Source: an uncultured Candidatus Saccharibacteria bacterium
GTDB lineage: Bacteria; Patescibacteriota; Minisyncoccia; Phycocordibacterales; UBA1550
Assembly: GCA_964642305.1 (NCBI GenBank)
Contig: CAZXOE010000004.1
Span: 7,894 to 71,893 of the forward strand
Length of the DNA: 64,000 bases
Reading direction: 5' to 3'
Part shown: positions 1-49,766 of the stretch, piece after piece
Position numbering within the stretch: the stretch's first letter is position 1
Layout: each line of letters opens with the position of its first letter
The notes under the pieces: generated by a model
The model's input: only the letters and a program-made list of their open reading frames with translations
What the model was told of the DNA's origin: nothing
The model's database searches: none
Translations under genes and position numbers: made by a program

Positions 1-576
1 GATAAATACGGCGCAGACGCCCTTCGTATCGGACTTGTCATCGGCAACACGCCTGGGAATGACCTCGCACTCGCTGAAGACAAAATAAAAGGCTACAAAC
101 ATTTTTGTAATAAGATTTGGAATGCAACACGATTTGTTTTGACGAACATTGGCGACACCACACTTGATACTCCACGCCCTAAACCGTCCTCTGGACGGTC
201 GGGCGAACCATCTGAGGATGGTTTTAGCCCCGTACTCACTACTCGTGATGAAGAAATTCTTGCGGAGCTTAACAAGGCAAATGAGAGCATTACTTCTCAC
301 TACGAAAGCTTCCGCTTCCACCTCGCGGGCGAAGAACTCTATCATTATTTCTGGAATACATTTGCAGATGTGATTATTGAAGAAATGAAACCCCGTCTTA
401 TGGGGACAGACCAAGCATCAAAAAAATCTGCAGAGTGGGTGCTCCTCCAGATTCTCTCGTCAAACATAAAAATGCTTCATCCATTTATGCCGTTCATCAC
501 TGAGGAGATTTGGGGTATACTACCTAGAGAGAGCAAACAGCTCCTCCTCGTAGAACCATGGCCGAAACAATTTTAA
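1..576 (+). CDS. valS: Valyl-tRNA synthetase, C-terminal part (5' end cut by window edge)
   Basis: Frame-1 translation from nt 1 reads DKYGADALRIGL...FCNKIWNATRF, the class I aaRS region after KMSKS that is typical of ValS. The ORF track's Met at 139 is internal. Stop at 574-576. Confidence 0.85.
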   Translation, partial: DKYGADALRIGLVIGNTPGNDLALAEDKIKGYKHFCNKIWNATRFVLTNIGDTTLDTPRPKPSSGRSGEPSEDGFSPVLTTRDEEILAELNKANESITSHYESFRFHLAGEELYHYFWNTFADVIIEEMKPRLMGTDQASKKSAEWVLLQILSSNIKMLHPFMPFITEEIWGILPRESKQLLLVEPWPKQF

Positions 577-1328
577 TTTGGAAACCAGTTGCAATTGCGA
601 TTGCTGGAGGAATACTCCCGTCGCTAGTGTGGCTTTGGTTTTGGCTAAAACAGGACAGCAAATCCCCGGAGCCAACAGGTCTCATAGCGCTCTCATTTTT
701 TGTTGGAATGGCAATTGTGTATTTTGTGCTTCCGCTACAAAAACTTGTACTTTCAAATATCGTTTCAATTGTTGATATGGTAAACGCAGTAGCTTCAAAA
801 ATATCATTGACAGCGCCGAGCGAAGAGGTAATCAGAACAACACTTTGGGCATTTATAGAGGAATTTGCAAAATATGCCACTGTGTTTTTTATAGCATTTA
901 AAAGTAGATTTTTTGACGAGCCAATGGACGCAGTAATTTACATAATTACTGCAGCGCTTGGTTTTTCTGCAATGGAAAACACGCTTTATATTTTCAAGGA
1001 CCTAGCAACCAGCGGAGCTTTTGAAGTATTTGGGAACGGAAATATGCGATTCCTTGGAGCTACTATTGTACACATCGTTTCATCAGCCTTTATAGGCCTA
1101 GCGATAGCGTTTTCCTTCTATGCGCCAAAATACATTAAGTTTATTTCAGTAATATTAGGGATTTCAACAGCTACACTATTGCATGCATACTTTAATTTAT
1201 CTATAATGGTTAGTGATGGAACGGTGAAGACACTTTTGGTATTTTCTCAGTTCTGGGGAGCTATCATCGTCATCATTATATTGCTTGCGCTCGTAAGGCG
1301 CATTCAAAGACCTAAACCTATTAACTAA
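558..1328 (+). CDS. PrsW-family intramembrane protease-like membrane protein
   Basis: Multi-TM protein with an EEFAKY (EExxK) motif and a GFSAMENTLY (FxxxE) motif, as in PrsW/CAAX-like proteases. Overlaps the valS end by 19 nt. Confidence 0.6.
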   Translation: MAETILIWKPVAIAIAGGILPSLVWLWFWLKQDSKSPEPTGLIALSFFVGMAIVYFVLPLQKLVLSNIVSIVDMVNAVASKISLTAPSEEVIRTTLWAFIEEFAKYATVFFIAFKSRFFDEPMDAVIYIITAALGFSAMENTLYIFKDLATSGAFEVFGNGNMRFLGATIVHIVSSAFIGLAIAFSFYAPKYIKFISVILGISTATLLHAYFNLSIMVSDGTVKTLLVFSQFWGAIIVIIILLALVRRIQRPKPIN

Positions 1329-1334
1329 TTTATT

Positions 1335-1799
1335 ATGAAACGATCTTTTTTTGAACGACTTACTGGAACAATTTCTCTCAAGGACCGCTCATCGGATTTT
1401 GAAGAGGATGTAGCTATTGAACAAGCGCCACAAAGCACATTTAGCCAATGGGAAGAAGAGGCAGCCCCTGAAGGCGAGCTTGCGGTAGATGTGTACCAGA
1501 CAAATGATTCAGTTGTCATTCAAGCAATGGTCGCAGGTGTTGCTTCCGAGGACCTCTCAGTATCTGTAACGCGCGAAATGGTGACCATCAAAGGCAAGAG
1601 AGAGTCCCCGAAAGGTATTTCTGCTGAGAACTATTTTTACCAGGAGCTCTACTGGGGAGCATTTTCTCGTGTAATCCTTCTTCCTTCTGAGGTTGAGACC
1701 GAGGAAGTGGAAGCCACGGAAAAGCATGGGCTTCTAACTATCAAGCTTCCAAAAATAGACAAAGACAGGAAGCAGACGATTAAGATTAAGTCGTTGTAG
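1335..1799 (+). CDS. Hsp20/alpha-crystallin small heat-shock protein
   Basis: VDVYQT...GLLTIKLPK alpha-crystallin domain pattern, about 150 aa. Confidence 0.85.
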   Translation: MKRSFFERLTGTISLKDRSSDFEEDVAIEQAPQSTFSQWEEEAAPEGELAVDVYQTNDSVVIQAMVAGVASEDLSVSVTREMVTIKGKRESPKGISAENYFYQELYWGAFSRVILLPSEVETEEVEATEKHGLLTIKLPKIDKDRKQTIKIKSL

Positions 1800-1810
1800 G
1801 GGTATACAAA

Positions 1811-1842
1811 AGAGAGCCACACTTCGTGTGGCTCTCTTTTTC
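1811..1842 (+). terminator. Rho-independent terminator after hsp20
   Basis: agagagccacac-ttcg-tgtggctctct hairpin followed by a T-run. Confidence 0.7.
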
Positions 1843-1858
1843 TGGTGCCGAGGACCCA
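1843..1858. repeat. 14-15 nt copy of the tRNA-Phe 3' end (tggtgccgaggacc)
   Basis: Identical to 2094-2107 in the same orientation, about 250 bp away. Confidence 0.5.
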
Positions 1859-2045
1859 GGCGAATTAGCAAATTCGGGGCTTGGCCCAAGACGTCACAAC
1901 CCTATAAGTACTCTCGATCCCGGCTCAGCGACCTAGTGAGTACACTAGGTGCCCGCTTGCGCCCCCAGCTCGTGGTTTTGCCTCCCAGTGGGTCGGCAAA
2001 ACATCACTGCGCCTTTCAACCCTTTAAATATGCTTCGCATATTTA

Positions 2046-2105
2046 TCCTCGGCACCATAATAAAACACCGCACAATCGTGCGGTGTTTTATTATGGTGCC
2101 GAGGA
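2046..2105. repeat. Perfect 28-bp inverted repeat (4-nt loop) whose right arm is the tRNA-Phe 3' acceptor strand plus CCA
   Basis: tcctcggcaccataataaaacaccgcac-aatc-gtgcggtgttttattatggtgccgagga. The reverse complement of the left arm equals the right arm exactly. Confidence 0.9.
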
Positions 2106-2169
2106 CCAGGGTTGAACTGGTGACCCCTCGCTCTTCAGGCGAATGCTCTACCAACTGAGCTACCTCGGC
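2094..2169 (-). tRNA. tRNA-Phe (anticodon GAA), CCA encoded
   Basis: Reverse complement folds as GCCGAGG/CCTCGGC acceptor, D arm GCTCAGTTGGTAGAGC, anticodon stem TTCGC/GCGAG with loop CTGAAGA (GAA), T arm GGTCA-CCAGTTCAACC-CTGGT, 3' CCA. Confidence 0.9.
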
Positions 2170-2237
2170 AAATTCTATATACTAACCTATCAATCAAGAT
2201 AACATATTTTGTGACACCCTTATGGACCTACCAAAAC

Positions 2238-2254
2238 AGCTACCTCGGCAAATT
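2238..2254. repeat. 17-nt copy of the tRNA-Phe 5' end plus 5 nt of its upstream flank (agctacctcggcaaatt)
   Basis: Identical to 2158-2174. An exact 17-mer is unlikely by chance in 64 kb. Confidence 0.6.
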
Positions 2255-2567
2255 ATTTATTGATCAAATTTTTTACTGCTTGCACGTCTGTAGGAATTGA
2301 ACCAGCTGCCTTTTCAAAATTTTGAATAATTCCAATTGAAGTCTGGAGTGTCTTCGTATACTTCTGAATCGTTGGCTGGAAATAGTAGTAAACTCCAAAA
2401 ATGGATCCCAGAATTACCGCCAAATACACAAACCTAAACAATGAACTCCATCGCTGCGCGCGACGCATAGAGCGAAGAATTTTGTTGTTCTCGTGCGTAA
2501 GCTCTAAAAGTTCGTCAAGTTTTCGCGCGTCCAATTCCATAAAGCAAGCATAGCAAATTTGAGCCAA
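2253..2567 (-). CDS. Hypothetical small membrane protein
   Basis: ORF with a coiled N-terminus and one hydrophobic helix. No recognisable family. Confidence 0.4.
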   Translation of the reverse strand: MAQICYACFMELDARKLDELLELTHENNKILRSMRRAQRWSSLFRFVYLAVILGSIFGVYYYFQPTIQKYTKTLQTSIGIIQNFEKAAGSIPTDVQAVKNLINK

Positions 2568-2578
2568 AAATCAAATTA

Positions 2579-2606
2579 AAAAGCCCATCGTTTAAAATGG
2601 GCCTTT
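2579..2606 (-). terminator. Rho-independent terminator for the 2625-3035 gene
   Basis: gcccat/atgggc hairpin followed by a T-run on the minus strand. Confidence 0.55.
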
Positions 2607-2624
2607 AGTAGGTTGCGCTACTTG

Positions 2625-3035
2625 TTAGGTCGCGTAGGCGACTTCTTGTTGTGATTTTGCAGGTTTTGACAACATTGTCCTGGAATCACCCATAAGCGAA
2701 ATGGCCTTGAGAAACGCGCCACTGATCACAAATGCTTCCGTAGACGCCCCACACGGACATAGGCACAAATACGAACGTGCTTCATCATTCTTTGTGCTTA
2801 CTGCAACAACTGTCACGTAAGCTGTCTCGCCTAACGTCAAGCATTCGTCGCAAAAATCTGCGAGTTTCTTCGCCTTGAGCGTCCCTATTGCTTTACGCAG
2901 GGAATCAATTCGCGGAATGATTGCTTGCTTGAGATGCAAAGCATTGAGCTCCATCGCTACCGTTTGAATTGCCTTAAAGCCATGTGGTAGTGGGATCTCA
3001 ATGACTTCTGGTGCTGCAATTTTGGCTTTTGCCAT
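2625..3035 (-). CDS. Hypothetical protein (Cys-rich LCLCPCG motif)
   Basis: Clean 136-aa ORF with good codon structure. Family not recognised. Confidence 0.5.
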   Translation of the reverse strand: MAKAKIAAPEVIEIPLPHGFKAIQTVAMELNALHLKQAIIPRIDSLRKAIGTLKAKKLADFCDECLTLGETAYVTVVAVSTKNDEARSYLCLCPCGASTEAFVISGAFLKAISLMGDSRTMLSKPAKSQQEVAYAT

Positions 3036-3172
3036 AACACTTCCCCCTTAAATTGAGTTTAAAAAAACAAAAAAAGGCAAAGAACTTCTTGCCGTATATA
3101 AGCATAGCACTCTCAAAAATAGAGTCAAGTTCAATTAGGATTCAAGGCTTATCAACACTACTTTTTTAGTTG

Positions 3173-3244
3173 TGCCCTCGGCAGGAATCGAACCTACATC
3201 TACTCCTTAGGACGGAACTGTTCTATCCATTGAACTACGAGGGC
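3173..3244 (-). tRNA. tRNA-Arg (anticodon CCT)
   Basis: Reverse complement GCCCTCG-TA-GTTC-AATGGATA-GAAC-A-GTTCC-GTCCTAA-GGAGT-AGAT-GTAGG-TTCGATT-CCTGC-CGAGGGC-A. Anticodon loop gives U33, CCT, A37. Confidence 0.85.
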
Positions 3245-3296
3245 AGAAAAAGGGGCAAATGCCCCTTTAAATCTTTACTTAATACTTTACAAAATA

Positions 3297-3530
3297 CTAC
3301 AAACCAAGCATGCTTGAGAGTTTTGATTTATCAAAACCAACAGCCATTTCATCTCCTACAAAGATTACCGGGACTCCCATTTGCCCGCTCTTCTCAATCA
3401 TCTCCTTTCGTTTTTCAAGATCTGTGCCCACGTTATACTCAGTGTAGTTCACATTATTTTCTGTAAAGAACTCCTTTGCCATTTTACAATATCCGCATGT
3501 TGGCGTTGTATAAATTGTTACTTCTTTCAT
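3297..3530 (-). CDS. Glutaredoxin-like (NrdH/Grx) small redox protein
   Basis: TCGYCKMAKEF CxxC motif, then VPVIFVGD. Start taken at MKEVTIY; the ORF extends to 3569. Confidence 0.7.
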   Translation of the reverse strand: MKEVTIYTTPTCGYCKMAKEFFTENNVNYTEYNVGTDLEKRKEMIEKSGQMGVPVIFVGDEMAVGFDKSKLSSMLGL

Positions 3531-3657
3531 AAGTTTAAAATTAAATTCTATCAAAATGGGTTTCCCCAAGAACCTGTCTATTTTACCATATGGAGCGATT
3601 AGACGCCAGTCTTTTCTGTTGAGCTAATATAAGTGCGATAAACGATTACTCCATCAA

Positions 3658-3750
3658 TAAATGGTTAATTTTGGAGAGCAATGTTAGAGCGGGCGGTGTA
3701 AAATCCAGTTACCTAGAGTCATGCAGAGCCCATAAGGGTGGTGCGGCCGT
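3658..3750 (+). repeat. Copy A of a ~95-nt direct repeat flanking the peptidase gene
   Basis: Aligns to 4481-4578 with shared blocks ggttaatttt, gagagcaatg, tt.gagcg, taaaatc, tta.ctagag and cag.gccca.aag, roughly 70-75% identity. Confidence 0.6.
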
Positions 3751-3800
3751 TCCTAAGGGCTTCTGAGGCGTCAGTGGGCATATATGTTATTATTTAATAA

Positions 3801-4457
3801 ATGAAAAGAGCACTTATTACAGGTTCAGAAACTTTTGGAAAATATTTAGCTAACCCTACTAAATGGCTAGCGCTCTTTGCAGACGGTAAAATAATTGCGG
3901 ATTACGAGATTCACTCTTTAGTTTTTCCAGCCATTGTATTATTTCCCGAAGGAGCAGAGGACCCAGGAGAAGTAATAATGAAAAAAGCTCAAGAAATAAA
4001 CGTAGATGTAATTCTTTCTTTTGGTATGGCTTCAGAGGTAAAGGGATTTCGTTTGGAGCAAACGGGAATAAATTGGATTTATAATGAAAAGTACCTTTCC
4101 TCTTTTGAAAACAACAGACCAGTTGATATAACACAGCCAGAAAAAGAAAAGATCAAAACCGATCTATCACATTGGGACATAGAAAAAATGCAGGGACTTT
4201 TTACTAAAGCAAATATTCCTTTACAATCAGAAATTTCTGATGACGCAGGTCAATATGCTTGTAATGGTTGGATTTACAGAACTTTGCTTGCAATGAGAAA
4301 ACAAAAACTTAACATTCCTTATTTGTTTGTTCATTGTTCATGCACAGAAGAAGCGGTAGAGCTTATTCCAGATTTTGATAGAAAAAATAGACTACTTATT
4401 AAAAAGGAAGACACGCTGAAAGCCTTGGAAATTATTTTACAGTCATGTAAGAGTTAG
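3801..4457 (+). CDS. Pyroglutamyl-peptidase I-like (peptidase C15 family)
   Basis: N-terminal ALITGSETFG (compare Pcp VLVTGFEPFG), DAGQYACNGW (Pcp catalytic Cys region SAGTFVCN) and a downstream HCS. Confidence 0.65.
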   Translation: MKRALITGSETFGKYLANPTKWLALFADGKIIADYEIHSLVFPAIVLFPEGAEDPGEVIMKKAQEINVDVILSFGMASEVKGFRLEQTGINWIYNEKYLSSFENNRPVDITQPEKEKIKTDLSHWDIEKMQGLFTKANIPLQSEISDDAGQYACNGWIYRTLLAMRKQKLNIPYLFVHCSCTEEAVELIPDFDRKNRLLIKKEDTLKALEIILQSCKS

Positions 4458-4480
4458 AGATTATACCAAGGGGTAGTCCT

Positions 4481-4578
4481 AAATTGGTTAATTTTTGAGA
4501 GCAATGGTTGAGCGAGAAACATAAAATCTCTTTACTTAGAGCCTCACAGAAGCCCACAAGTGCATTGTGGGGCGGGTT
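4481..4578 (+). repeat. Copy B of the ~95-nt direct repeat
   Basis: See copy A. Copy B carries an internal hairpin cccacaa-gtgca-ttgtggg. Confidence 0.6.
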
Positions 4579-4671
4579 TTTGGAAAAAGTTACCTGACAC
4601 CCATACTCATTATGTGAATGACACATGAGAGAATATTATTAGAACACACAAAATTCAAAAGAATGGTGGCT

Positions 4672-4706
4672 GTCCCCATTTCCCGTCCCCATTTCCCCAT
4701 TTCCCT
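4672..4706. repeat. Short tandem repeat (gtccccatttccc x2 plus a partial unit)
   Basis: gtccccatttcccgtccccatttccccatttccc read directly from the sequence. Confidence 0.7.
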
Positions 4707-4735
4707 TCTAAACAGTGGTGTTTTTAATTAGCATT

Positions 4736-6187
4736 TTATGCAGATAAGATTTGTTGTAATCTCTCATTGAGAAATATGTCAAAGGTGTCTTCAGAATCTT
4801 TTCTTCCCTCAATCATTTTAACAATATCATTATCTCCCAAGGGCAGAACAATACATCTATGTCTCAAATAAATTTCTTTTGATTTTTTAATATCATCTTC
4901 GGTCACACCATCTCTTTGTATGAGAAAAATAAAATCTCTACCATTTTTAATGGTATAAGCGAGACTCTGATTAAATTCCTTATTGCTAACATTGGTTAAT
5001 CCATAATTTTTTGCCTCGATAATGATAAGTCCAGCTTTGATTTGTTGGTTTCTTAGGACATTGAAAAATGCTGTTGTTGAAGCGTTTAAGAAATTAAGGT
5101 CATATCTATATATCTCTCCATGAGAAGTAGTTTCAATTTTCCCTCTCAATAAATTTTCTCCATATATAACCTTAAATATCTTGAGAAGAAGCAGGCTATA
5201 TTCTCGTGACGATTTACTTCCTGTTGGAAGCGCCTTAATCTCATTAATATATGTTTGCCACACAATTTTTTGCTTACGAGGTCTTCTTTTTGAATCAAAT
5301 TGGTGCGGATTTTCAGCATACCCCTTAACCAACTCAGGTCGTTCTTGCGCAATAATTCTTGCTGCCAAGTGTACTGATCCATACTTACTTTCAAGACTTT
5401 TCTCAATGTCTTTGATTTTAACTTTTGGTTCTTTCCCAATGGTACTCAGTATCTTTTCCCTAGAAAGTTCCTCGTTCTGTAATACATACTTAAGACACCC
5501 ATTATAAAACTCACTCGTAGACAGAATGGGCATCTTCCTTGATATGTGTCTAGGTACCAACAGGCGATACCCACCATTTTCATAGTGTGGTAAATCTACT
5601 TTTATCGCAGGTACCCACTTTCTTGTATTAAAATCATACCCATTAGGAAGACTAACAGAAATTGTTTTAAGGTTAAAAGTCTTTACTTGCTCTTTTGTGT
5701 ACTCAATTAAATTAAAAAGGGCGAAATTCCCAACCAAGTCTGATAATAAATCAGGTCCAATACCCTCAATTTGGATAGAGGTTTTTGCTAGTGCCTCAAT
5801 CCCAAACTCTGCTATCTCGGTGTTGTCAAAAATTGCTTCCTTAATAAGTCCCGCCCTTTCAAGGTGCGTACCTTTGCCTTTAACGCCCTCTTTGCAATAA
5901 CCAAGACCAATTGCTTGAACTTCAGGAAAGTTGAGAGCAATGAGCAGTTGCTCCTCTGAGATTTTATTAGATCTATAATCGACTAAAAGTTGATTAAAAT
6001 AATTAAAAATATGTGCTTGAACCTCATGCCATTCTGGGTCCCTTGATTCGTACATTAAATATAAGTCTAAATACGCACGTACGTCACCCTTAGGATCTGG
6101 GGTAATAAAATCCAATTCAAATGGTTTATAATTACTGCACAGTTCATCTAGAGATATTTTTTCTTCTTGGGTTGGAGGTGTATTCAT
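4736..6187 (-). CDS. Hypothetical 483-aa protein with C-terminal PD-(D/E)xK-like nuclease motif (candidate restriction/defence nuclease)
   Basis: C-terminus ...YRYDLNFLN...GLIIIEAKNYG fits the D...ExK pattern. No P-loop. Sits 5 nt downstream of the GIY-YIG gene in an AT-rich island next to R-M genes. Confidence 0.45.
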   Translation of the reverse strand: MNTPPTQEEKISLDELCSNYKPFELDFITPDPKGDVRAYLDLYLMYESRDPEWHEVQAHIFNYFNQLLVDYRSNKISEEQLLIALNFPEVQAIGLGYCKEGVKGKGTHLERAGLIKEAIFDNTEIAEFGIEALAKTSIQIEGIGPDLLSDLVGNFALFNLIEYTKEQVKTFNLKTISVSLPNGYDFNTRKWVPAIKVDLPHYENGGYRLLVPRHISRKMPILSTSEFYNGCLKYVLQNEELSREKILSTIGKEPKVKIKDIEKSLESKYGSVHLAARIIAQERPELVKGYAENPHQFDSKRRPRKQKIVWQTYINEIKALPTGSKSSREYSLLLLKIFKVIYGENLLRGKIETTSHGEIYRYDLNFLNASTTAFFNVLRNQQIKAGLIIIEAKNYGLTNVSNKEFNQSLAYTIKNGRDFIFLIQRDGVTEDDIKKSKEIYLRHRCIVLPLGDNDIVKMIEGRKDSEDTFDIFLNERLQQILSA

Positions 6188-6192
6188 AAACT

Positions 6193-6549
6193 TTATTCAA
6201 AATTAATGTCAATTGCTCCAACGTCTGGAATTCGCTCAACGCAGGTTGGGCTATATTTTTCATAAAGTGCTACTTCTGCGCCGTCGCGATTATTTTGTGT
6301 TGATATTGCGCATGCTCTGAAAAAACATCTGTAATTTTTAAGAAGTTTATTGCAACAAGAATTTACCTCAGTGTCGAGCAAGTGTTGCCCTAAACGCTCC
6401 TTTAAGTTTTCTGCTTGTCCAACATAGTGAACATAGTATTTATTGTTGCTTGAATCAAGGTGTGATATGCGGTATACGCCAGCTGCTTCGTTTATTTTGT
6501 TTACCTCTTCAGAGTTAAGAGGGTTTAATTTCGTCCAGTTTAGTTCCAT
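6193..6549 (-). CDS. GIY-YIG nuclease domain protein
   Basis: GVYRI...(10 aa)...YYVHYVGQA...LKERLGQH gives the GIY, YIG and conserved Arg spacing of the GIY-YIG fold. 118 aa. Confidence 0.7.
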   Translation of the reverse strand: MELNWTKLNPLNSEEVNKINEAAGVYRISHLDSSNNKYYVHYVGQAENLKERLGQHLLDTEVNSCCNKLLKNYRCFFRACAISTQNNRDGAEVALYEKYSPTCVERIPDVGAIDINFE

Positions 6550-6627
6550 GTTTTTTAAAATTATGATTAATAATACTGTTGATAACTACTACTTGCATAC
6601 TTTCTATTTATTTTCTATAATAGCACC
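6550..6627. promoter_or_regulatory. Divergent promoter region between the GIY-YIG operon and the LexA-methyltransferase gene
   Basis: 78-bp AT-rich spacer containing tactgttgataactactac (a CTGT half-site at 6574-6592) and a tataat immediately before the 6628 start. Confidence 0.4.
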
Positions 6628-8493
6628 ATGATAACAAAAAAGCAAACACAAGTCCTTGATTTCATAAAAACCTACAGAGCAAAAAACAGTTACTCCCCAT
6701 CTCTTGAAGAAATAAAGAAAAAGTTTAAGTTTGCTTCTGTTTCAACTGCGCATTACTACATTTGCAAGTTGCAGAATGCAGGTTTTTTGAATAAAGAGCA
6801 TAACCAACCGCGTGCTGTTTCGACAGTTGAAGCCAAACAGACAATAGAAATTCCTATTTTGGGTGCTATTGCGGCTGGTCAGCCGATTGAGGCAATAGAA
6901 ATCCCAGACGAAATGATAACGATCACAAGAGACGAGATTGGGAGACAAGGCAAGCACTATGCTTTACGTGTTCAGGGCAGTAGTATGATTGATGAGGGCA
7001 TTTTCGATGGTGATATTGTGGTTATACGAAAACAAGAAGTAGCAGAAAACGGGCAGACTGTTGTCGCTGTGATTGACGACAACGAAGCGACTCTCAAAAA
7101 ATTGTATCGTGAAAATGGAAGGTTTAGATTGCAACCCGCAAACCCGACCTTATTCCCAATCTATCGAGACGAGGTAGAGGTGAGGGGTGTAGTTGTTAAA
7201 ATTATTCGCAATCTTGAATCACAACTGGATCAAGGGCAATCGAGGAATGAAAAGTATGTGCGGAAAATAGACTACTCGTGGGATTATAGAGGAGAAAAAA
7301 CAAAAGCACACACACACGGAATTCATACCTATCCGGCAATGTTTATTCCTCAAGTGGGACGAAGATTGTTAGAAACATACAGCAAAGAAGGTGACACTAT
7401 CTGCGATATTTTTTGTGGCTCTGGCTCAGCATTAGTTGAAAGCAGATTGATAGGGAGAAATGCCTACGGCATCGATCTTAATCCTCTGGCTATTTTCCTT
7501 GCACATGCGAAAACAACCCCAATTAATCCGCAAAAACTAACAAAAGAGTATCTCGCATTGCTTAACAGGGTTGAAAAAATAAAGGATAGCGAAGTACAAA
7601 GACCAGATTTTAAAAATATTGATTTTTGGTTTAAAGATATAGCAATCGTTAAGCTTACCAAGTTGAAAAAAGCTATACGAGAAATAAAAGACGACGCAAT
7701 TCAGAATTTTTTGATGGTTGCCTTTAGCGAGACGGTTCGTTATTCCTCAAACACAAAAACTGGCGAATTTAAATTGGTACGTGTTAAAGGCGACAAATTG
7801 GAAAAACACAATCCTGATGTTATTGGTATCTTTCGCAAACACGCGGAGAAAAACATTGCGGGGATGACTGATTTTTACAAAGATGCAAAAAAAGGTGTGT
7901 GGACGAAAATAATCTATGGTGATTCATCAAAAGATAACGGTATTAAAGCAAGTTCCATTGATTGCATCATTACTTCTCCGCCGTATGGCGATAGTCGAAC
8001 AACAGTTGCTTACGGGCAATTTTCTCGACTCTCGGCTCAATGGATTGATATGTTTGAAAACCCAAATGACGCCTCTGGACTAGACAATGAGCTTCTTGGT
8101 GGCAGGGCAACCAAGCATTTAGCTCATACGCTTTCATCTGAGTATCTCAAAGAATCATTGGAGAAAATTGCGAAACAGGACGAAGCAAGGGCGAAGGACG
8201 TACTGAGTTTCAATATTGGTTTGAATGAATGTTTGAAACAAGCGCACAGGATACTTAAGCCAGGAAAATATTTTTGTCTTGTTATTGGGAATAGGTTAGT
8301 TAAGCAGGTGAGAATCCCCACCGACTTTATTATTGCCGAGTTAGCAGAAAAAATTGGATTTACTTGTGAAGATATTATCGTACGAAATATTCCAGGGAAA
8401 AGAATGCCTATAAAAAATTCTCCAACAAATATTGTCGGGGCTCTTGAAGAAACGATGAACAAAGAGAGTATTGTGGTGTTAAGGAAAAACTAA
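6628..8493 (+). CDS. Fusion protein: complete LexA repressor (wHTH + S24 peptidase) joined to an N4/N6 DNA methyltransferase (probable m4C MTase of the adjacent R-M system)
   Basis: aa 1-195 align with LexA throughout: QTQVLDFI, IPILGAIAAGQP (Ala-Gly cleavage site), RVQGSSM (catalytic Ser), GDIVVI, GQTVVAVIDDNEATLKKL (catalytic Lys), GVVVKIIRN. aa ~230-621 carry HTYPAMFIPQ + DIFCGSGS (motif X/I, AdoMet binding) and IDCIITSPPYGD (motif IV, SPPY). One uninterrupted 621-codon ORF. Confidence 0.85.
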   Translation: MITKKQTQVLDFIKTYRAKNSYSPSLEEIKKKFKFASVSTAHYYICKLQNAGFLNKEHNQPRAVSTVEAKQTIEIPILGAIAAGQPIEAIEIPDEMITITRDEIGRQGKHYALRVQGSSMIDEGIFDGDIVVIRKQEVAENGQTVVAVIDDNEATLKKLYRENGRFRLQPANPTLFPIYRDEVEVRGVVVKIIRNLESQLDQGQSRNEKYVRKIDYSWDYRGEKTKAHTHGIHTYPAMFIPQVGRRLLETYSKEGDTICDIFCGSGSALVESRLIGRNAYGIDLNPLAIFLAHAKTTPINPQKLTKEYLALLNRVEKIKDSEVQRPDFKNIDFWFKDIAIVKLTKLKKAIREIKDDAIQNFLMVAFSETVRYSSNTKTGEFKLVRVKGDKLEKHNPDVIGIFRKHAEKNIAGMTDFYKDAKKGVWTKIIYGDSSKDNGIKASSIDCIITSPPYGDSRTTVAYGQFSRLSAQWIDMFENPNDASGLDNELLGGRATKHLAHTLSSEYLKESLEKIAKQDEARAKDVLSFNIGLNECLKQAHRILKPGKYFCLVIGNRLVKQVRIPTDFIIAELAEKIGFTCEDIIVRNIPGKRMPIKNSPTNIVGALEETMNKESIVVLRKN

Positions 8494-9191
8494 ATTAGCC
8501 CAACTTTTGTATCAAAGCAGTTGTAAAGTTGCTTTATCTTTACTCTAAAGCCGGTGCCATGATTACGAACGGAACCATCTGGACGATAGTACATTCTGAA
8601 ATCTACAACAAGATAATCTTTTCTTACCATATTTTTGAAGTGCTCAAAATCAAAGCCTTCTAAAAAATATGCTTCGTTGAAATGAAAATGTTCAACGCCC
8701 TTTATCTCTTTGCAGTCCGCTAACACATACACGAGAGCCGGAAGTTTTGCTTCAAACTTTTGTTTTAAGTCTTCCATATCCCAGTAGATGTTTAGTCGTT
8801 TACCCTTGCCAACAACTCGGACCTTGCCTTTCTCTACTTTAAGTTTTAATCCTTGATTATTGTACCGTTTACACGAAAGAGTGCTGTGTAATTCCTTGGC
8901 ACGTCCGTTATCCCTTTTTGAGTACCCAAAACCATCAAGCAGTGTTCTGTCTCGATCGCCACCTTTTGGTTGTGGCTCCAATGTAAAGAGCGTCAGCATA
9001 GAGACCGCATTTTTTCGGTACGCCTTAAGTTCAGCTATTTCACCAATATCTGGAAGTGGAATATTATTTTCTTTTATTCCCAGTAAGTCTTCAAGTGTTT
9101 TTCCAATACCCGTATCGCCCTTGCGGTGAGTTTTAATAAACCCTAGAGCTTTTATACTTTTAAGTTTTTTCTTGAGTTCTTGGAGTGTCAT
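8490..9191 (-). CDS. Type II restriction endonuclease, MutH/MvaI-BcnI-like
   Basis: N-terminal KGDTGIGKTLEDLLGIKENNIPLPDIGEIAELKA matches the MutH-fold REase signature (KG..G..LE.LLG...N...PD...ELK). Start MTLQELK at 9191 sits 1 nt after the C-gene stop. 3' end overlaps the MTase stop by 4 nt, so the genes are convergent. Confidence 0.7.
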   Translation of the reverse strand: MTLQELKKKLKSIKALGFIKTHRKGDTGIGKTLEDLLGIKENNIPLPDIGEIAELKAYRKNAVSMLTLFTLEPQPKGGDRDRTLLDGFGYSKRDNGRAKELHSTLSCKRYNNQGLKLKVEKGKVRVVGKGKRLNIYWDMEDLKQKFEAKLPALVYVLADCKEIKGVEHFHFNEAYFLEGFDFEHFKNMVRKDYLVVDFRMYYRPDGSVRNHGTGFRVKIKQLYNCFDTKVGLI

Positions 9192-9192
9192 A

Positions 9193-9429
9193 TTATTTAA
9201 TGAAAAATAAAACGTCTTTTTTATAGATATTTGCAAACTTTTTAATCTCGACGACATCAAGTCGTCTTTCACCAGACTCAATTTTTGATATATAGGATTG
9301 TGGCTTACCGAGTTTATCGGCAACCTCTTGCTGTGCAAGCCCAGCCTCAATCCGCGCCGTTTTTAAGCGTTCTATGATTTCCTTATAGTCTTTTGCGTAA
9401 ACGGATCTGTTCATAAGTATTTCAATCAT
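9193..9429 (-). CDS. Controller (C) protein, XRE-family HTH regulator of the R-M system
   Basis: 78 aa. LAQQEVADKLGKPQSYISKIESGERRLDVVEI is a Cro/C1-type HTH. Start MIEILMNR has an AAGGA SD 5 nt upstream. The stop abuts the REase start, the classic C-R arrangement. Confidence 0.75.
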   Translation of the reverse strand: MIEILMNRSVYAKDYKEIIERLKTARIEAGLAQQEVADKLGKPQSYISKIESGERRLDVVEIKKFANIYKKDVLFFIK

Positions 9430-9441
9430 ATATCCTTTTAT

Positions 9442-9469
9442 GGTATAATCCCAAAATGGGATTATACCC
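9442..9469. promoter_or_regulatory. Candidate C-box operator: 28-bp dyad ggtataatccca-aaat-gggattatacc just upstream of the C gene
   Basis: Perfect 12-bp arms containing TATAAT on both strands, 12 nt upstream of the C start codon. Confidence 0.55.
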
Positions 9470-9638
9470 AAACCAGCCCTCGCCACCATCGCCAATACTT
9501 TTCATTAAGCCCACGTCCAAGACGCGCTTCCGGCTTTCGATTCTGATTTTTGCATCTCAAAAATCATGTCGCAAGATTTCCACAACAAAGTTGTGTGAAA
9601 TTTAGGACCCGACGCAAGGCGCGCAGACGTCTTGCTCT

Positions 9639-9687
9639 ACCCGCACAATTTTAAAGCCCCTTTCGGGGCTCAAAATTGTGCGGGTAC
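9639..9687. repeat. Large compound hairpin (13-bp outer stem cccgcacaatttt/aaaattgtgcggg, inner agcccc-tttc-ggggct)
   Basis: Read directly. No flanking T-run on either strand. Confidence 0.7.
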
Positions 9688-9841
9688 CGGGACTCTTCGC
9701 TATCTCACTCGGAGCTAAAGCTCCTCTTTAGAAACCCACGGTTTCTAACACTCACTTCGTTCGCTGTTTTCCTCCACGGGAAAACAGGTGTTTTCCCGAC
9801 CCCTTTCCCGTTCGATTCTCGTCCCATCACTAGCAGACAAA

Positions 9842-9876
9842 AGAAAAACACTCGCAAGGAGTGTTTTTCTTTTGTC
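9842..9876. terminator. Bidirectional intrinsic terminator (12-bp stem agaaaaacactc/gagtgtttttct) next to the tRNA-Gly 3' end
   Basis: Perfect stem with loop gcaagg and T-runs on both strands. Confidence 0.7.
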
Positions 9877-9878
9877 TG

Positions 9879-9949
9879 TGCGGGTAGCGAGAATCGAACT
9901 CGCGTCTCAACCTTGGGAAGGTCGCATCATACCACTAAACTATACCCGC
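9879..9949 (-). tRNA. tRNA-Gly (anticodon CCC)
   Basis: Reverse complement GCGGGTATAGTTTAGTGGTATGATGCGACCTTCCCAAGGTTGAGACGCGAGTTCGATTCTCGCTACCCGCA. Anticodon stem CGACC/GGTTG, loop TTCCCAA. Closely resembles E. coli tRNA-Gly. Confidence 0.85.
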
Positions 9950-10037
9950 AAGTGAGTGACAAAGCGAAAATGTTCACATTTTCATTTTTCGCGAACGCCG
10001 CGGATATAAGTACCCTTATACCCGCGGGATTTAATTT

Positions 10038-10421
10038 TTAGAAACCGAAAAGAGAGACGAAGTATTGCCAAGGATTTTTATTATCCATGGCTTCACTATT
10101 CTCGCCTTTTTTTACGCTATCGTCAACAATAATTACAACCTCTTCTCCTGGGCGCGCGACTGTATATTTTTGCCTAACTTCCTCTTCTATTCCACGATCA
10201 CTTTTGAGACGTATCAGGCTCGCCTGTAGCTCGGAGGATCGTGATTCCATCTCCGTGAAGGCGCGTTCCGCAATATCACGCTCTGAGCGCGCTATTTGGG
10301 CCTTTTGGTGAGTGTTCCACGCTCCCCTTCCAACAAAAAATACCAGAACAGCAAGCACCAAAAGCGTTATCCTTGAATATAAAATTTTCCTTAATTTTTG
10401 ACGTCCTTGAAATGGAATCAT
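10038..10421 (-). CDS. Septum formation initiator (FtsB/DivIC-like) protein
   Basis: N-terminal TM, a coiled coil, then ...YTVARPGEEVVII typical of the FtsB/DivIC C-terminus. Confidence 0.55.
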   Translation of the reverse strand: MIPFQGRQKLRKILYSRITLLVLAVLVFFVGRGAWNTHQKAQIARSERDIAERAFTEMESRSSELQASLIRLKSDRGIEEEVRQKYTVARPGEEVVIIVDDSVKKGENSEAMDNKNPWQYFVSLFGF

Positions 10422-10781
10422 GTTAATAGCCTAATTATAGTCTAATGTCTAGCAAAAATCTCCAAATTTCTAGCGAAAAACGCAAAGCTTGAGGAGGAAT
10501 ATAGAGATATGCCGACGAAGGGTTGGTGTTTTACAGCAGAAATTTGAAGATTTTGGCAGACAAGCCTGCATATATGCAGTTCCCCTTGCCAGCGATTAGA
10601 CTTTATTTAGGCTATGATGTAGTATACGAGAATATTAGTTAACTTTACACCCCCATCTTTATGATGTTTGACAAAAAATACAAAAGATATTGGAATACGT
10701 TTGGAGTTGTTGTCGCGGTTCTCGTAATTGTGAGCATGGTTCTTCTGTACGCAGCACCTTCGCTATCTAGCTAGAACTTTT

Positions 10782-10931
10782 CTAGCTCAAAAACAAAAAC
10801 CCAGCAATAGAACGCTATATAACTAGGTACAATATCTCCTGCGTTCGCTCGGAAATACAAACTCCATGTTTGTGTTTCTCTCGCTCTCTTGGAGATAGCG
10901 TTCTATTGCTGGGTTTTTGTTTTTGAGCTAG
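10782..10931. repeat. 37-bp perfect inverted repeat separated by 76 nt, abutting the lepA stop codon
   Basis: Left arm ctagctcaaaaacaaaaacccagcaatagaacgctat (10782-10818); right arm is its exact reverse complement (10895-10931). A nested atctcc/ggagat pair lies inside. Confidence 0.85.
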
Positions 10932-12733
10932 TTCTCCCCTCCCCTCACCATTTTCAAAAATACCTCATGAGGAATATCTACAGTGCCGCGCGCCTGCATT
11001 TTTTTCTTTCCTTTCTTCTGTTTCTCCCACAATTTCTTTTTACGAGAAATATCTCCGCCATACAAATACCCCGTCACATCTTTTTTCATCGCTGTTAGAG
11101 AACGTGACGAAATTATTCGCCCAAGTCCGTATCCTTGAATCTTCACATTAAAAAGTTGTCGTGGAAGAATCCCATGAAGCTTTTCCACCATATCCTCAGC
11201 TTCTCGCTCTATACGACGCCTCGAAACTACTTTTGAAAATGCTGGCACCACCTCCTCTGCTACCAAAATATCCAGGCGCGCCACATCTGCCTCACGAAGA
11301 GTTGTAAGCTCGTACGCTAAAGACGCAAAACCAGACGAGACGCTTTTTAAATCATCAAAAAAGTTCCTCATAAGCTCACGAAGTGGCATCTCCACCTCAA
11401 TAGCCGTGCGATTATCTCCAAAAAGCTCTGTAGCGCCAACAATTGCCTCGTGGTCATAAAGAAGCGTCATAATAGGGCTTACATATGCAGGCGGAGTAAT
11501 GATTTTCACCTTGACCCATTGTTCAAAAATTTTACTAGTAGAGCCATAGTCAGGAAAAAGGTGCGCTGAGTAAATAACTTTTCTTTCTCCATTGTTCCTC
11601 ATCTCCACTTCATACGTAATAGAAGGTGTTGTAACAATAATCTCAAGAGTAAACTCGCGACGCAAACGCTCCGTTACGATTTCCATATGAAGCATTCCAA
11701 GAAAACCACAACGAAATCCACGCCCAAGCACACCAGAAACTTCTTCCTCAAAAGAAAGCGACGAATCAGAAAGTTGCAAAATCTCAAGAGACTGCCTAAG
11801 CACAGTAAAGTCGTCCGCGCTTTCAGGATACACAGATGCCCACACCACAGGACGAGGCTTCATATACCCTTCCAGTGGCGAAGCTGATGCTTTTTGTGTC
11901 GTGATAGTATCGCCCACTGTTGCGATGCCTGGCTTCTTTATCCCTGTGAGGATGTACCCGATTTCGCCAGCGGAAAGAGTGTCGGTGTCCACCATGTCGG
12001 GATGAAAAATTCCAACACCTAGCGCGCCAAACTTTTCTCTAGCTTGTGAAAAAAGTAGCGTGTCGTTCTTGCGTGCCTGTCCATCCAAAACACGCACGTA
12101 CACAATAATTCCTTTGTGACTTGAATATCCAAAATCAAAAACGAGAGCGCGAAATGGGCCGTCTACACCACCTTCAGAAACCGGCGCTTTGATACGCTCA
12201 ATAATTGCGCCAAGAATTTCTGGTACCCCCTGCCCTGTTTTTCCAGACACCTCAAGCACCTCACTTGCTGAAATATCCAAAAGTTTTGCCAGTTCGTCCT
12301 TCACCTCTTCTACGCGCGCTATTGGAGAATCAACTTTTGAAACAGCTGGAATAACCACTAGCCCCTCCTCGCGCGCCATCGCAAGAACTGAAAGCGTTTG
12401 CGCTTGTACTCCCTGTGTGGAGTCTACAAGAAGAATTGTCCCTTCTACCGCTTTCATTGCGCGCGAAACCTCGTACGCAAAGTCAATGTGCCCAGGGGTA
12501 TCAATAAGGTTCAAAACATATTTCTCACCCTTGTACATATGCTCCATACGCACAGGTTGCATTTTGATGGTGATACCTCTCTCGCGCTCAAGCTCCATAG
12601 AGTCCAGAACTTGCTCTTTCATTTTGCGCGCCTCTACAGTACCTGTCACTTCAAGCATGCGGTCCGCGAGCGTGGACTTACCATGATCAATATGGGCGAT
12701 AATAGAAAAGTTTCGGAGGTGCTTCAAATCCAT
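10928..12733 (-). CDS. lepA: Elongation factor 4 (LepA)
   Basis: MDLKHLRNFSIIAHIDHGKSTLADRMLE... translational GTPase, about 600 aa. Start taken at MDLKH. Confidence 0.95.
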   Translation of the reverse strand: MDLKHLRNFSIIAHIDHGKSTLADRMLEVTGTVEARKMKEQVLDSMELERERGITIKMQPVRMEHMYKGEKYVLNLIDTPGHIDFAYEVSRAMKAVEGTILLVDSTQGVQAQTLSVLAMAREEGLVVIPAVSKVDSPIARVEEVKDELAKLLDISASEVLEVSGKTGQGVPEILGAIIERIKAPVSEGGVDGPFRALVFDFGYSSHKGIIVYVRVLDGQARKNDTLLFSQAREKFGALGVGIFHPDMVDTDTLSAGEIGYILTGIKKPGIATVGDTITTQKASASPLEGYMKPRPVVWASVYPESADDFTVLRQSLEILQLSDSSLSFEEEVSGVLGRGFRCGFLGMLHMEIVTERLRREFTLEIIVTTPSITYEVEMRNNGERKVIYSAHLFPDYGSTSKIFEQWVKVKIITPPAYVSPIMTLLYDHEAIVGATELFGDNRTAIEVEMPLRELMRNFFDDLKSVSSGFASLAYELTTLREADVARLDILVAEEVVPAFSKVVSRRRIEREAEDMVEKLHGILPRQLFNVKIQGYGLGRIISSRSLTAMKKDVTGYLYGGDISRKKKLWEKQKKGKKKMQARGTVDIPHEVFLKMVRGGEN

Positions 12734-18058: not shown

Positions 18059-18067
18059 TGTGGATAA
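18059..18067. promoter_or_regulatory. DnaA-box-like 9-mer (tgtggataa = TTATCCACA) inside a 17-nt motif repeated at 49695-49711
   Basis: aactgtggataactttt is identical at both sites. Confidence 0.4.
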
Positions 18068-18104
18068 CTTTTATATATGGTAACCCTATGTAAATCGAGC
18101 AAAA

Positions 18105-49481: not shown

Positions 49482-49766
49482 TTTTTTATGTGCTGTTTCA
49501 AAATCTACTTAGTAAATCTTAAAACAATGTATGCAAATTATTCTACAGCAATGTTCGACCTGATAAGAAAATTAATTTTTTTATCACGTACAATTGCTGG
49601 ATCATCTTTGTGTAAAATTTCTTTCACACGCTGTACAGTGATCTACTAATATTATCTCGCATAAAAAAAACATTCGCAAGAGATTTTGAAATTTAACTGT
49701 GGATAACTTTTTTTTCTTTTTTACAAAGTAAAATTATTTTTTTATTTATTTTTAAGAAATTTATTT

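Follow-up and report, generated by a model that had tools for sequence, protein, structure and literature searches.

A GIY-YIG gene and a DUF8370 nuclease candidate divergent from a LexA::methyltransferase gene in Candidatus Saccharibacteria

Two adjacent genes that face a gene for a fusion of LexA with a DNA methyltransferase raise the question of whether they form one two-nuclease defence system, belong to the neighbouring restriction-modification (R-M) system, or are separate genes sharing one operon. They lie, with the control region in front of them, at 4736-6627 of a 64,000-nucleotide (nt) stretch from an uncultured Candidatus Saccharibacteria bacterium (contig CAZXOE010000004.1, positions 7,894 to 71,893), referred to here as the window. 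The first gene encodes a GIY-YIG protein of 118 amino acids (aa) and the second, which follows after 5 nt (6188-6192), a 483-aa protein of the DUF8370 family. A preliminary description of the locus reported these two open reading frames (ORFs), the 5-nt gap, and a 78-bp divergent region, and a reading of the ORFs agrees with it on all three. Because both ORFs possess conserved homologues (24 clusters for the 483-aa protein and 34 for the GIY-YIG protein), neither is a chance reading frame. The arrangement is best explained, with a probability of roughly 0.65, as a mosaic two-gene operon, probably LexA-repressed, that carries an independent, separately acquired defence-type nuclease. What has been observed is the gene content, the assigned domains and folds, the conservation, the statistics of gene neighbourhoods, and the places where the mosaic breaks; from these we infer operator identity, SOS induction, nuclease activity, and an anti-phage role.

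The GIY-YIG gene and its downstream slot

The GIY-YIG domain assigned to the 118-aa protein stands, as Pfam GIY-YIG (PF01541) matches at 27.0 bits, above the gathering score of 22.6. The canonical spacing of 10 and 9 residues claimed for it does not: the motifs run GVY (24-26), 15 residues, YVG (42-44), 7 residues, R52. The catalytic set Y26, Y42, R52, H56, and E92 is retained, and across 20 homologues (53-71% identity, all ~118 aa) G24, Y26, Y42-V43-G44, R52, and H56 are invariant and E92 nearly so. The segment YVGQAENLKER resembles YVGKAKSLKER of UvrC. The top PDB profile match is the UvrC N-terminal domain 1yd6, which is weak (E 0.03), and the best NCBIfam similarity is to a model of GIY-YIG-bearing DEDD exonucleases (PRK07883). 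These features make the protein a credible stand-alone UvrC/Cho-like GIY-YIG nuclease, and it may serve as a Cho-like processing nuclease or a general effector. Escherichia coli Cho is an SOS-induced GIY-YIG nuclease. With Cho and the UvrC N-terminal domain the protein shares the GIY-YIG catalytic set, the YVGxAxxLxxR signature, and the linkage to LexA; it differs from them in its length of 118 aa, in having no UvrB-interaction or DNA-binding regions, in the weakness of the similarity, and in its R-M cassette setting. A homing-endonuclease reading was considered and rejected, since Pfam finds the catalytic domain alone and the LexA neighbour is conserved.

The setting of the gene was examined in 59 metagenome loci fetched with the GIY-YIG alignment (referred to by L numbers where they must be told apart), 49 of which are informative in having enough upstream sequence. 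In 35 of these 49, lexA is divergent from the GIY-YIG gene at a distance of 71-110 nt, and in at least 18 of the 35 a single ORF joins LexA to an N6/N4 methyltransferase. A homologue of the controller (C) protein of the R-M system usually lies ~700 nt beyond the methyltransferase. One locus, L028, has the window layout in unfused form, with lexA, a D12 methyltransferase, and an N6/N4 methyltransferase divergent from the GIY-YIG gene. The control region is shared with the LexA-methyltransferase gene, as had been proposed, and this layout is conserved for the GIY-YIG gene, which is the conserved leader gene of an operon divergent from lexA or lexA::methyltransferase in a Patescibacteria cassette.

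What follows the leader gene changes from locus to locus. At least nine unrelated gene families start 1-5 nt after the GIY-YIG stop codon, including a basic protein of 103 or 105 aa (~16 loci), an SNase-like protein of 86-87 aa (~12 loci), a 285-aa Hypoth_Ymh protein, a 459-aa SMODS+AGS_C protein, a 454-aa TPR protein, and proteins of 246, 308, and 255 aa; a ThsB_TIR gene lies farther downstream in one locus. DUF8370 occurs in none of the 59. The closest cassette, L050, keeps C, the endonuclease gene (R), and the fusion gene (LexA::M), and has an 87-aa SNase-like gene in place of DUF8370. Homology detected by blastn breaks at gene boundaries: 4736-6168, within DUF8370, is related to L024, L026, and L017; 6194-6622, which spans the GIY-YIG gene and the intergenic region, to L030 and L031; and 6628-9119, covering LexA::M and R, to L050. 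Searches of the window by tblastn and blastn for leftovers of these other downstream genes were negative. The site 1-5 nt past the end of the GIY-YIG gene is an exchangeable cargo slot, which here holds the horizontally acquired gene for DUF8370/PDC-M36A.

The converse comparison gives the same picture. In the contexts examined of close (43-80% identity) and distant DUF8370 homologues, this GIY-YIG gene stands beside DUF8370 only in the window's own contigs, so that the co-occurrence with GIY-YIG genes that the preliminary description had suggested checking is confined to the window's lineage. Because the pair is limited in this way, because the GIY-YIG loci hold no DUF8370, and because homology breaks at the gene boundaries, DUF8370 is taken to be independent of the GIY-YIG gene.

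The DUF8370 gene and its relatives

The 483-aa gene is a fresh member of a catalogued, functionally uncharacterised candidate family, DUF8370/PDC-M36A. Its product matches the PADLOC profile PDC-M36A (PDLC04597; E 1.2e-24), with residues 24-460 on profile positions 20-431 of 457, and the PHROG family phrog_27295 (E 2.5e-27), and PF28123 (DUF8370) is the precomputed label for exactly this protein. The model PF28123 is missing from the Pfam copy scanned, which gave no match. A DUF8370 profile search returned 3,235 cluster representatives, the top-scoring ones mostly ~480 aa. The window protein agrees with the family in its full-length profile match, in its length of ~480 aa, and in being embedded at the end of another defence operon. 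Literature searches on PDC-M36, PF28123, and DUF8370 returned no papers.

A restriction-endonuclease-type (PD-(D/E)xK) fold in the C-terminus is supported by sequence conservation and by modelling. The string YRYD...IIIEAKN noted in the preliminary description is present, and D363, E391, and K393 do not vary among 19 close homologues or among 36 diverse DUF8370 members. The AlphaFold2 (AF2) model of the protein (pLDDT 81) places D363 in strand 359-368 and E391 and K393 in strand 388-393, which are consecutive core strands. A Foldseek search of the model against the PDB returned FokI (E 8.7e-4, probability 0.96), MspJI (probability 0.90), EcoT38I, and Rpb5, with TM-scores of 0.17-0.24 that are low because the model has several domains. 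These nuclease-type matches are lost when the N-terminal domain is searched alone, and they therefore come from the C-terminus, where the preliminary description had placed the nuclease. Its statement that NTPase motifs are lacking also holds, as domain scans of the 483-aa protein detected no NTPase domain. A PDB sequence search with the protein or its profile gave nothing significant, tblastn against the INPHARED phage genomes gave zero matches, IMG/VR gave one weak partial match, and BFVD gave only weak matches of restriction-endonuclease or Rpb5 type. By its conserved residues and modelled fold the protein is a credible nuclease and a candidate anti-phage protein.

The N-terminal domain is modelled with good confidence (Table 1). 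A Foldseek search of residues 1-335 against the PDB found no match (best E 0.56, probability 0.03), and neither an SRA-like modified-base reader nor the FokI recognition fold matches the model. Eight residues of the domain, F27, D35, E89, D146, S149, D150, T164, and P212, are invariant in the 36 diverse members. Presumably the domain serves sensing or recognition, in which case the protein would mirror FokI and MspJI, with recognition at the N-terminus and cleavage at the C-terminus. It seems to be an independent module, because small Acinetobacter and Bacillus plasmids encode proteins of ~305-318 aa whose match to DUF8370 is confined to its N-terminal part and leaves out the nuclease region (L092, 4956-5870; L093, 3959-4915; L094, 3971-4915; L095, 3959-4906). 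These plasmid genes adjoin rep, toxin-antitoxin genes, or a pair consisting of a helix-turn-helix (HTH) gene and an ImmA/IrrE gene.

In other genomes, DUF8370 homologues occupy defence islands or mobile elements and are usually packed onto another operon; non-defence contexts would have spoken against the defence assignment made in the preliminary description. The closest relatives (75-80% identity) adjoin a helicase or a type IIG-like enzyme. In one context the gene comes after a PLD-SNF2 helicase and an Eco57I/MmeI-type methyltransferase, 4 nt behind the latter; in L024 it comes 20 nt after an AAA_11/AAA_12/MTES_1575 helicase and before xseAB; and in L019 it comes after LexA and a GhoS-like gene (5-nt gap), as part of an element that also has genes for a serine recombinase, a terminase-like protein, and a methyltransferase. 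Elsewhere it neighbours a serine recombinase, with an MmeI/type ISP enzyme beyond in L015, and in L017 it lies divergent from a different N6_N4 methyltransferase. It also belongs to an island that holds an NgoFVII R-M system, Vsr, and a diversity-generating retroelement reverse transcriptase, and HNH and TIR-like genes are further neighbours. A B. mycoides plasmid carries the gene flanked by Gabija-like genes and McrBC; in Rhodobacter it adjoins genes for SIR2 and DUF3427 proteins, and in Leptolyngbya it follows umuDC. The methyltransferases near other homologues are of another subfamily (phmmer E ~1e-3). The gene mostly lies within 4-20 nt of the upstream gene, and such tight packing agrees with how the PDC set arose, namely from genes lying inside other defence operons.

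Small nuclease genes often occur near distant homologues. They encode a T5orf172 protein (L006, 9528-10241), the domain of which we take to belong to the GIY-YIG clan; a UvrC-like GIY-YIG protein of 205 aa in Leptolyngbya (L091, 8791-9408); an annotated GIY-YIG nuclease of 277 aa in Rhodobacter (L096, 8495-9328); and, directly upstream of DUF8370, an HNH_2 protein (L023, 3584-4096). Five Patescibacteria loci (L019, L014, L021, L029, and L017) have an element backbone of a serine recombinase, a 477-491-aa terminase-like gene, a 135-156-aa protein, a ~426-aa N6_N4 methyltransferase, and a LexA/S24 repressor. The cargo downstream of the repressor is GhoS-like plus DUF8370 in L019, Shedu SduA_C in L021, and GIY-YIG plus small genes in L029. 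The gene at 8001-9134 in L026 and L027 is called as 377 aa in L026, where the DNA at 8008-9439 aligns with the whole window ORF (4737-6168) at 78% identity; the short call probably reflects a frameshift or a wrongly placed end of the gene.

Control of the operon and competing explanations

The adjacent repressor reads as a complete, cleavable LexA: the 621-aa fusion protein matches TIGR00498 lexA at 171.8 bits against a cut-off of 110.95, and its translation has the residues of autocleavage in place (A83-G84, S119, and K157). The operator of this repressor was sought in 25 distinct homologous intergenic regions, 16 of the fusion type and 9 with stand-alone LexA. The promoters of both transcription units (Table 1) were located by eye and by homology with related regions, which have TTGAC.-N17-TATAAT; a promoter scan called neither because each -35 box matches only 3 of 6 positions. 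The direct repeat TAGAA-N6-TAGAA occurs in 14 of the 16 fusion-type regions and in none of the 9 stand-alone-LexA regions, 7 of which have CCTAA-N6-CCTAA instead. These repeats have an 11-bp period, and their sequence switches with the LexA N-terminal clade. TAGAA-N6-TAGAA is found twice in the 64-kb window versus 0.21 matches expected, and it lies upstream of no other gene there, the second copy being inside a glycosyltransferase gene. Because the repeat in the control region overlaps both -10 boxes, one operator could repress both promoters. LexA dimers usually bind inverted repeats, and the GTTC-N7-GTTC box of Alphaproteobacteria is a direct repeat; the alignment suggests direct-repeat LexA operators in these Patescibacteria as well.

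The preliminary description had instead pointed to a CTGT half-site. The string tactgttgataactactac does lie at 6574-6592, but its reading as a LexA half-site does not hold, as the other half is ACTA and the string carries the reverse complement of GTTATCAACA. An E. coli-type SOS box, CTGT-N8-ACAG, is absent; CTGT-N8-ACTA is present in its place, as part of an element resembling TTATCCACA. The element TTATC[CA][AC]CA occurs in 24 of the 25 intergenic regions, 26-36 nt from the GIY-YIG ATG, whatever the LexA clade, and in the form GTTATC[CA][AC]CA it agrees with the DnaA-box consensus TTATCCACA. We infer that TAGAA-N6-TAGAA is a better operator candidate than the CTGT string, and SOS-linked control of the operon, as first proposed, is plausible. 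GTTATCMMCA has 3 matches in the window versus 0.38 expected. The other two copies, at 18059-18068 (-) and 49698-49707 (-), are intergenic and co-oriented with the downstream genes for an RRM protein and secA. DnaA boxes do not cluster in the window, where 19 one-mismatch matches compare with 15.9 expected.

These data allow a mechanism to be proposed. LexA::M would bind TAGAA-N6-TAGAA over both -10 boxes and repress both promoters. DNA damage, caused by phage replication or self-restriction, would activate RecA, and RecA-stimulated self-cleavage at A83-G84 would free the DNA-binding domain. The methyltransferase gene and the GIY-YIG-DUF8370 operon would then be derepressed, and with both nucleases produced, the constitutive MvaI-like R-M system would be backed by an inducible layer. 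DUF8370 would probably cleave DNA as an effector that works alone, target sensing or recognition being the task of its N-terminal domain. On this view a defence nuclease that can be induced would stand next to an R-M system linked to the SOS response, much as the preliminary description had suggested.

Several points weigh against this explanation. The 1-5 nt coupling of GIY-YIG to the next gene could signal a functional partnership beyond co-transcription, and GIY-YIG-clan genes recur loosely near distant DUF8370 homologues, at varied distances and in varied orientations. The PDC-M36 family is a "guilt-by-embedding" candidate, one among 145 PDC candidates, and its defence role is putative. 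PDC-M36 also differs from the present locus in being defined as a three-gene cassette, FAM_01399>>FAM_00303>>FAM_00303, the partner genes of which were not found by PADLOC among the GIY-YIG, LexA::M, R, and C genes of the window or among 10 neighbours in related loci. The DUF8370 contexts studied number ~25 out of the 3,235 family representatives. The proposed LexA operator is predicted from sequence, while LexA dimers mostly take inverted repeats. Finally, the island in the window has no recombinase.

The coupling invites two related alternatives. The GIY-YIG protein might be the constant subunit of a modular, DNA-damage-triggered second defence line under the R-M-linked LexA, with an interchangeable partner (DUF8370, SNase-like, SMODS-AGS_C, Hypoth_Ymh, or the basic 103-aa protein) for sensing or targeting, in which RecA-driven cleavage of LexA::M would raise the methyltransferase too; we regard this as doubtful. 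Less probable still, and unlikely overall, is an obligate two-nuclease system, for example one with GIY-YIG as shared catalytic subunit and DUF8370 as a targeting or sensing partner that is interchangeable with the other downstream proteins. The gap of 5 nt here, and of 1-5 nt in nearly all LexA-linked related loci, suggests translational coupling; a DNA-binding extension is not seen in the 118-aa protein; and some distant DUF8370 genes have the HNH_2 gene directly upstream or GIY-YIG-clan genes nearby. However, in the loci compared this GIY-YIG gene and DUF8370 occur together nowhere outside the window's lineage, which leaves the "unusual two-nuclease defence system" first suggested unsupported, and DUF8370 is equally close behind unrelated genes (a methyltransferase at 4 nt, a helicase at 20 nt, and a GhoS-like gene at 5 nt). 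The generally compact nature of patescibacterial genomes also counts against such a system.

Other alternatives concern what the nucleases do. DUF8370 could be a stand-alone restriction endonuclease, either modification-dependent (type IV, MspJI-like) or type IIS-like, with an N-terminal domain that reads modified or specific DNA independently of the LexA::methyltransferase. This is a refinement of the mosaic-operon explanation, and one that we regard as doubtful. The Foldseek matches to MspJI and FokI favour it, as do the single-gene ~480-aa architecture across the family representatives and the frequent presence of non-cognate methyltransferases near DUF8370. With FokI (type IIS) and MspJI (type IV) the protein shares a predicted layout in which a non-catalytic domain comes first and a PD-(D/E)xK cleavage domain forms the C-terminus; it differs in having no sequence similarity to them, in its low TM-scores, and in an N-terminal domain unlike the FokI recognition or SRA folds. 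The unmatched N-terminal domain and the low TM-scores count against this alternative, as do the invariant acidic and polar residues of that domain, which look more like an active or ligand-binding site, and the N-terminal-only proteins that stand alone on small plasmids. A different proposal, related to the second restriction module of the preliminary description, is that DUF8370 is a second restriction enzyme paired with the LexA::methyltransferase, giving two endonucleases per methyltransferase. Its divergent adjacency to a methyltransferase, here and in L017, is consistent with this. Yet a cognate MvaI/BcnI-type endonuclease and C-protein are already present, and L050 keeps C, R, and LexA::M without DUF8370. 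A cognate methyltransferase is also missing beside DUF8370 homologues, of which the closest adjoin a helicase or type IIG-like enzyme and others lie near methyltransferases of another subfamily. We consider this pairing very improbable.

It is also rather improbable, though less so than such a pairing, that the two genes are SOS DNA-repair genes of a host LexA regulon, with GIY-YIG as a minimal Cho/UvrC-like incision nuclease and DUF8370 as a repair nuclease. The GIY-YIG protein is nearest to the UvrC N-terminus and the PRK07883 model, and DUF8370 adjoins xseAB in L024 and comes after umuDC in Leptolyngbya. In Bacteroidetes, moreover, there is evidence that LexA regulates a gene for an exonuclease with a GIY-YIG domain (PMC8565304). 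Against a repair role, this LexA is consistently tied to R-M genes and to no repair regulon, DUF8370 is patchy in distribution, sits here in a low-GC island, and in other genomes lies beside recombinases and defence genes, and the TAGAA repeat precedes no other gene of the window.

The mosaic operon has parallels in known systems. B. subtilis yneA-yneB-ynzC is divergent from lexA, and lambda rexAB occupies a prophage "moron" slot next to the repressor gene. As in these, the operon described here shares a short divergent region with lexA, and cargo that varies, whether accessory or defensive, lies next to a repressor gene; the slot downstream of LexA holds Shedu (SduA) or DUF8370 in related elements. 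Here, however, an R-M methyltransferase is fused to the repressor or shares its operon, and the leader gene encodes a nuclease, not a division inhibitor. Type II R-M systems controlled by C-proteins are known, as are methyltransferases that autoregulate through an N-terminal HTH. The cassette shares with them a C-protein, an endonuclease, and a methyltransferase with a DNA-binding N-terminus that probably autoregulates; the DNA-binding module in the cassette differs in being a complete LexA with an S24 autoprotease, for which literature searches on LexA turned up no paper.

In the recurrent cassette, the gene for an R-M methyltransferase shares an operon with that of a cleavable LexA or is fused to it, and opposite lies the conserved GIY-YIG gene, followed by a slot for various defence-type genes. 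No description of C, R, and LexA(::)M facing GIY-YIG and a variable gene was found in literature searches, including the Erill-laboratory papers checked. Patescibacteria, or bacteria of the candidate phyla radiation (CPR), have tiny genomes, mostly without CRISPR, and are thought to depend largely on R-M systems. If regulation is as proposed, the cassette would couple DNA-damage sensing compactly to inducible immunity and methyltransferase homeostasis, and the slot would be a place to seek new defence genes in CPR genomes. Self-restriction damage could also feed back on methyltransferase expression via LexA cleavage. Were the modular-partner alternative true, it would mean that CPR bacteria link R-M and the SOS response to exchangeable effectors by a new regulatory logic. 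DUF8370 itself is a tractable biochemistry target, being a large family with an invariant PD-(D/E)xK site and a well-modelled N-terminal domain without a PDB match.

Locus layout and genomic setting

Table 1. Features of the locus, in window coordinates
Feature	Position	Strand	Basis or remark
483-aa DUF8370 ORF	4736-6187	(-)	ORF reading
Predicted C-terminal PD-(D/E)xK nuclease domain	4739-5182	(-)	D363 (5099-5101), E391 (5015-5017), K393 (5009-5011)
N-terminal domain, residues 1-335	5183-6187	(-)	AF2 pLDDT 85.7, pTM 0.77
118-aa GIY-YIG ORF	6193-6549	(-)	ORF reading
Divergent control region	6550-6627		78 bp between GIY-YIG and LexA::methyltransferase genes
DnaA-box-like conserved element GTTATCAACA	6577-6586	(-)	TTATC[CA][AC]CA match
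Putative P(lexA::M)	TTGCAT (6593-6598)-N17-TATAAT (6616-6621)	(+)	By eye and homology with related regions
Direct repeat TAGAA-N6-TAGAA, candidate LexA operator	6602-6617	(-)	Overlaps both -10 boxes
Putative P(GIY)	TTGCTT (6645-6640)-N17-TATTAT (6622-6617)	(-)	By eye and homology with related intergenic regions
LexA::N4/N6 DNA methyltransferase fusion, 621 aa	6628-8493	(+)	TIGR00498, Peptidase_S24, LexA_DNA_bind, N6_N4_Mtase
MvaI/BcnI-family type II restriction endonuclease, 248 aa	8490-9236	(-)	PF15515 E 3e-53
HTH controller (C) protein of R-M system	9193-9471	(-)	HTH_3 E 5e-14; PADLOC Control_protein

By domain content, the C-protein, the MvaI/BcnI-type endonuclease, and the methyltransferase (PADLOC MTase_II, E 7e-131) make up a full C-controlled type II R-M system. 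Fusions of LexA with N6/N4 methyltransferases (~455-620 aa) are widespread in metagenome contigs, usually with a C-protein homologue beyond them and space for a ~230-aa endonuclease between the two. They are found in the window and in L031, L035, L040, L045, L046, L050, L052, L054, L055, L057-L061, L065, L069, L073-L075, L078, L081, L082, and L087. Unfused lexA-methyltransferase operons occur in L028 and L048, and the 90%-identity cluster of the window enzyme contains stand-alone 411-aa methyltransferases from other Parcubacteria.

LepA shows identities of 90% or more with proteins from Candidatus Yonathbacteria, Nomurabacteria, and the Parcubacteria group, which places the organism in the Patescibacteria. 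The locus lies in a stretch of low GC content (0.33-0.40 across 3300-9300, versus 0.42-0.48) that is bounded by tRNA-Arg and tRNA-Gly; an Rfam scan of 1-12000 found three tRNAs and nothing else. A search for att-like repeats at the edges of the island yielded only a 19-nt stretch that partly copies the 3' end of tRNA-Gly (9677-9695 versus 9877-9895, 84% identity), 200 nt inside the low-GC island. This copy may be an integration scar, though without a recombinase. Perfect or near-perfect hairpins lie near it, at 9638-9686 and 9834-9878. Just 3' of the DUF8370 stop codon, at 4672-4708, is a short tandem repeat of TCCCCATT / GTCCCCATTTCCC (minus strand GGGAAATGGGGA), at which no minus-strand intrinsic terminator is predicted. 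A 69-nt imperfect direct repeat (3659-3727 and 4482-4550, 74% identity) flanks a pyroglutamyl-peptidase (Peptidase_C15) gene at 3801-4457.

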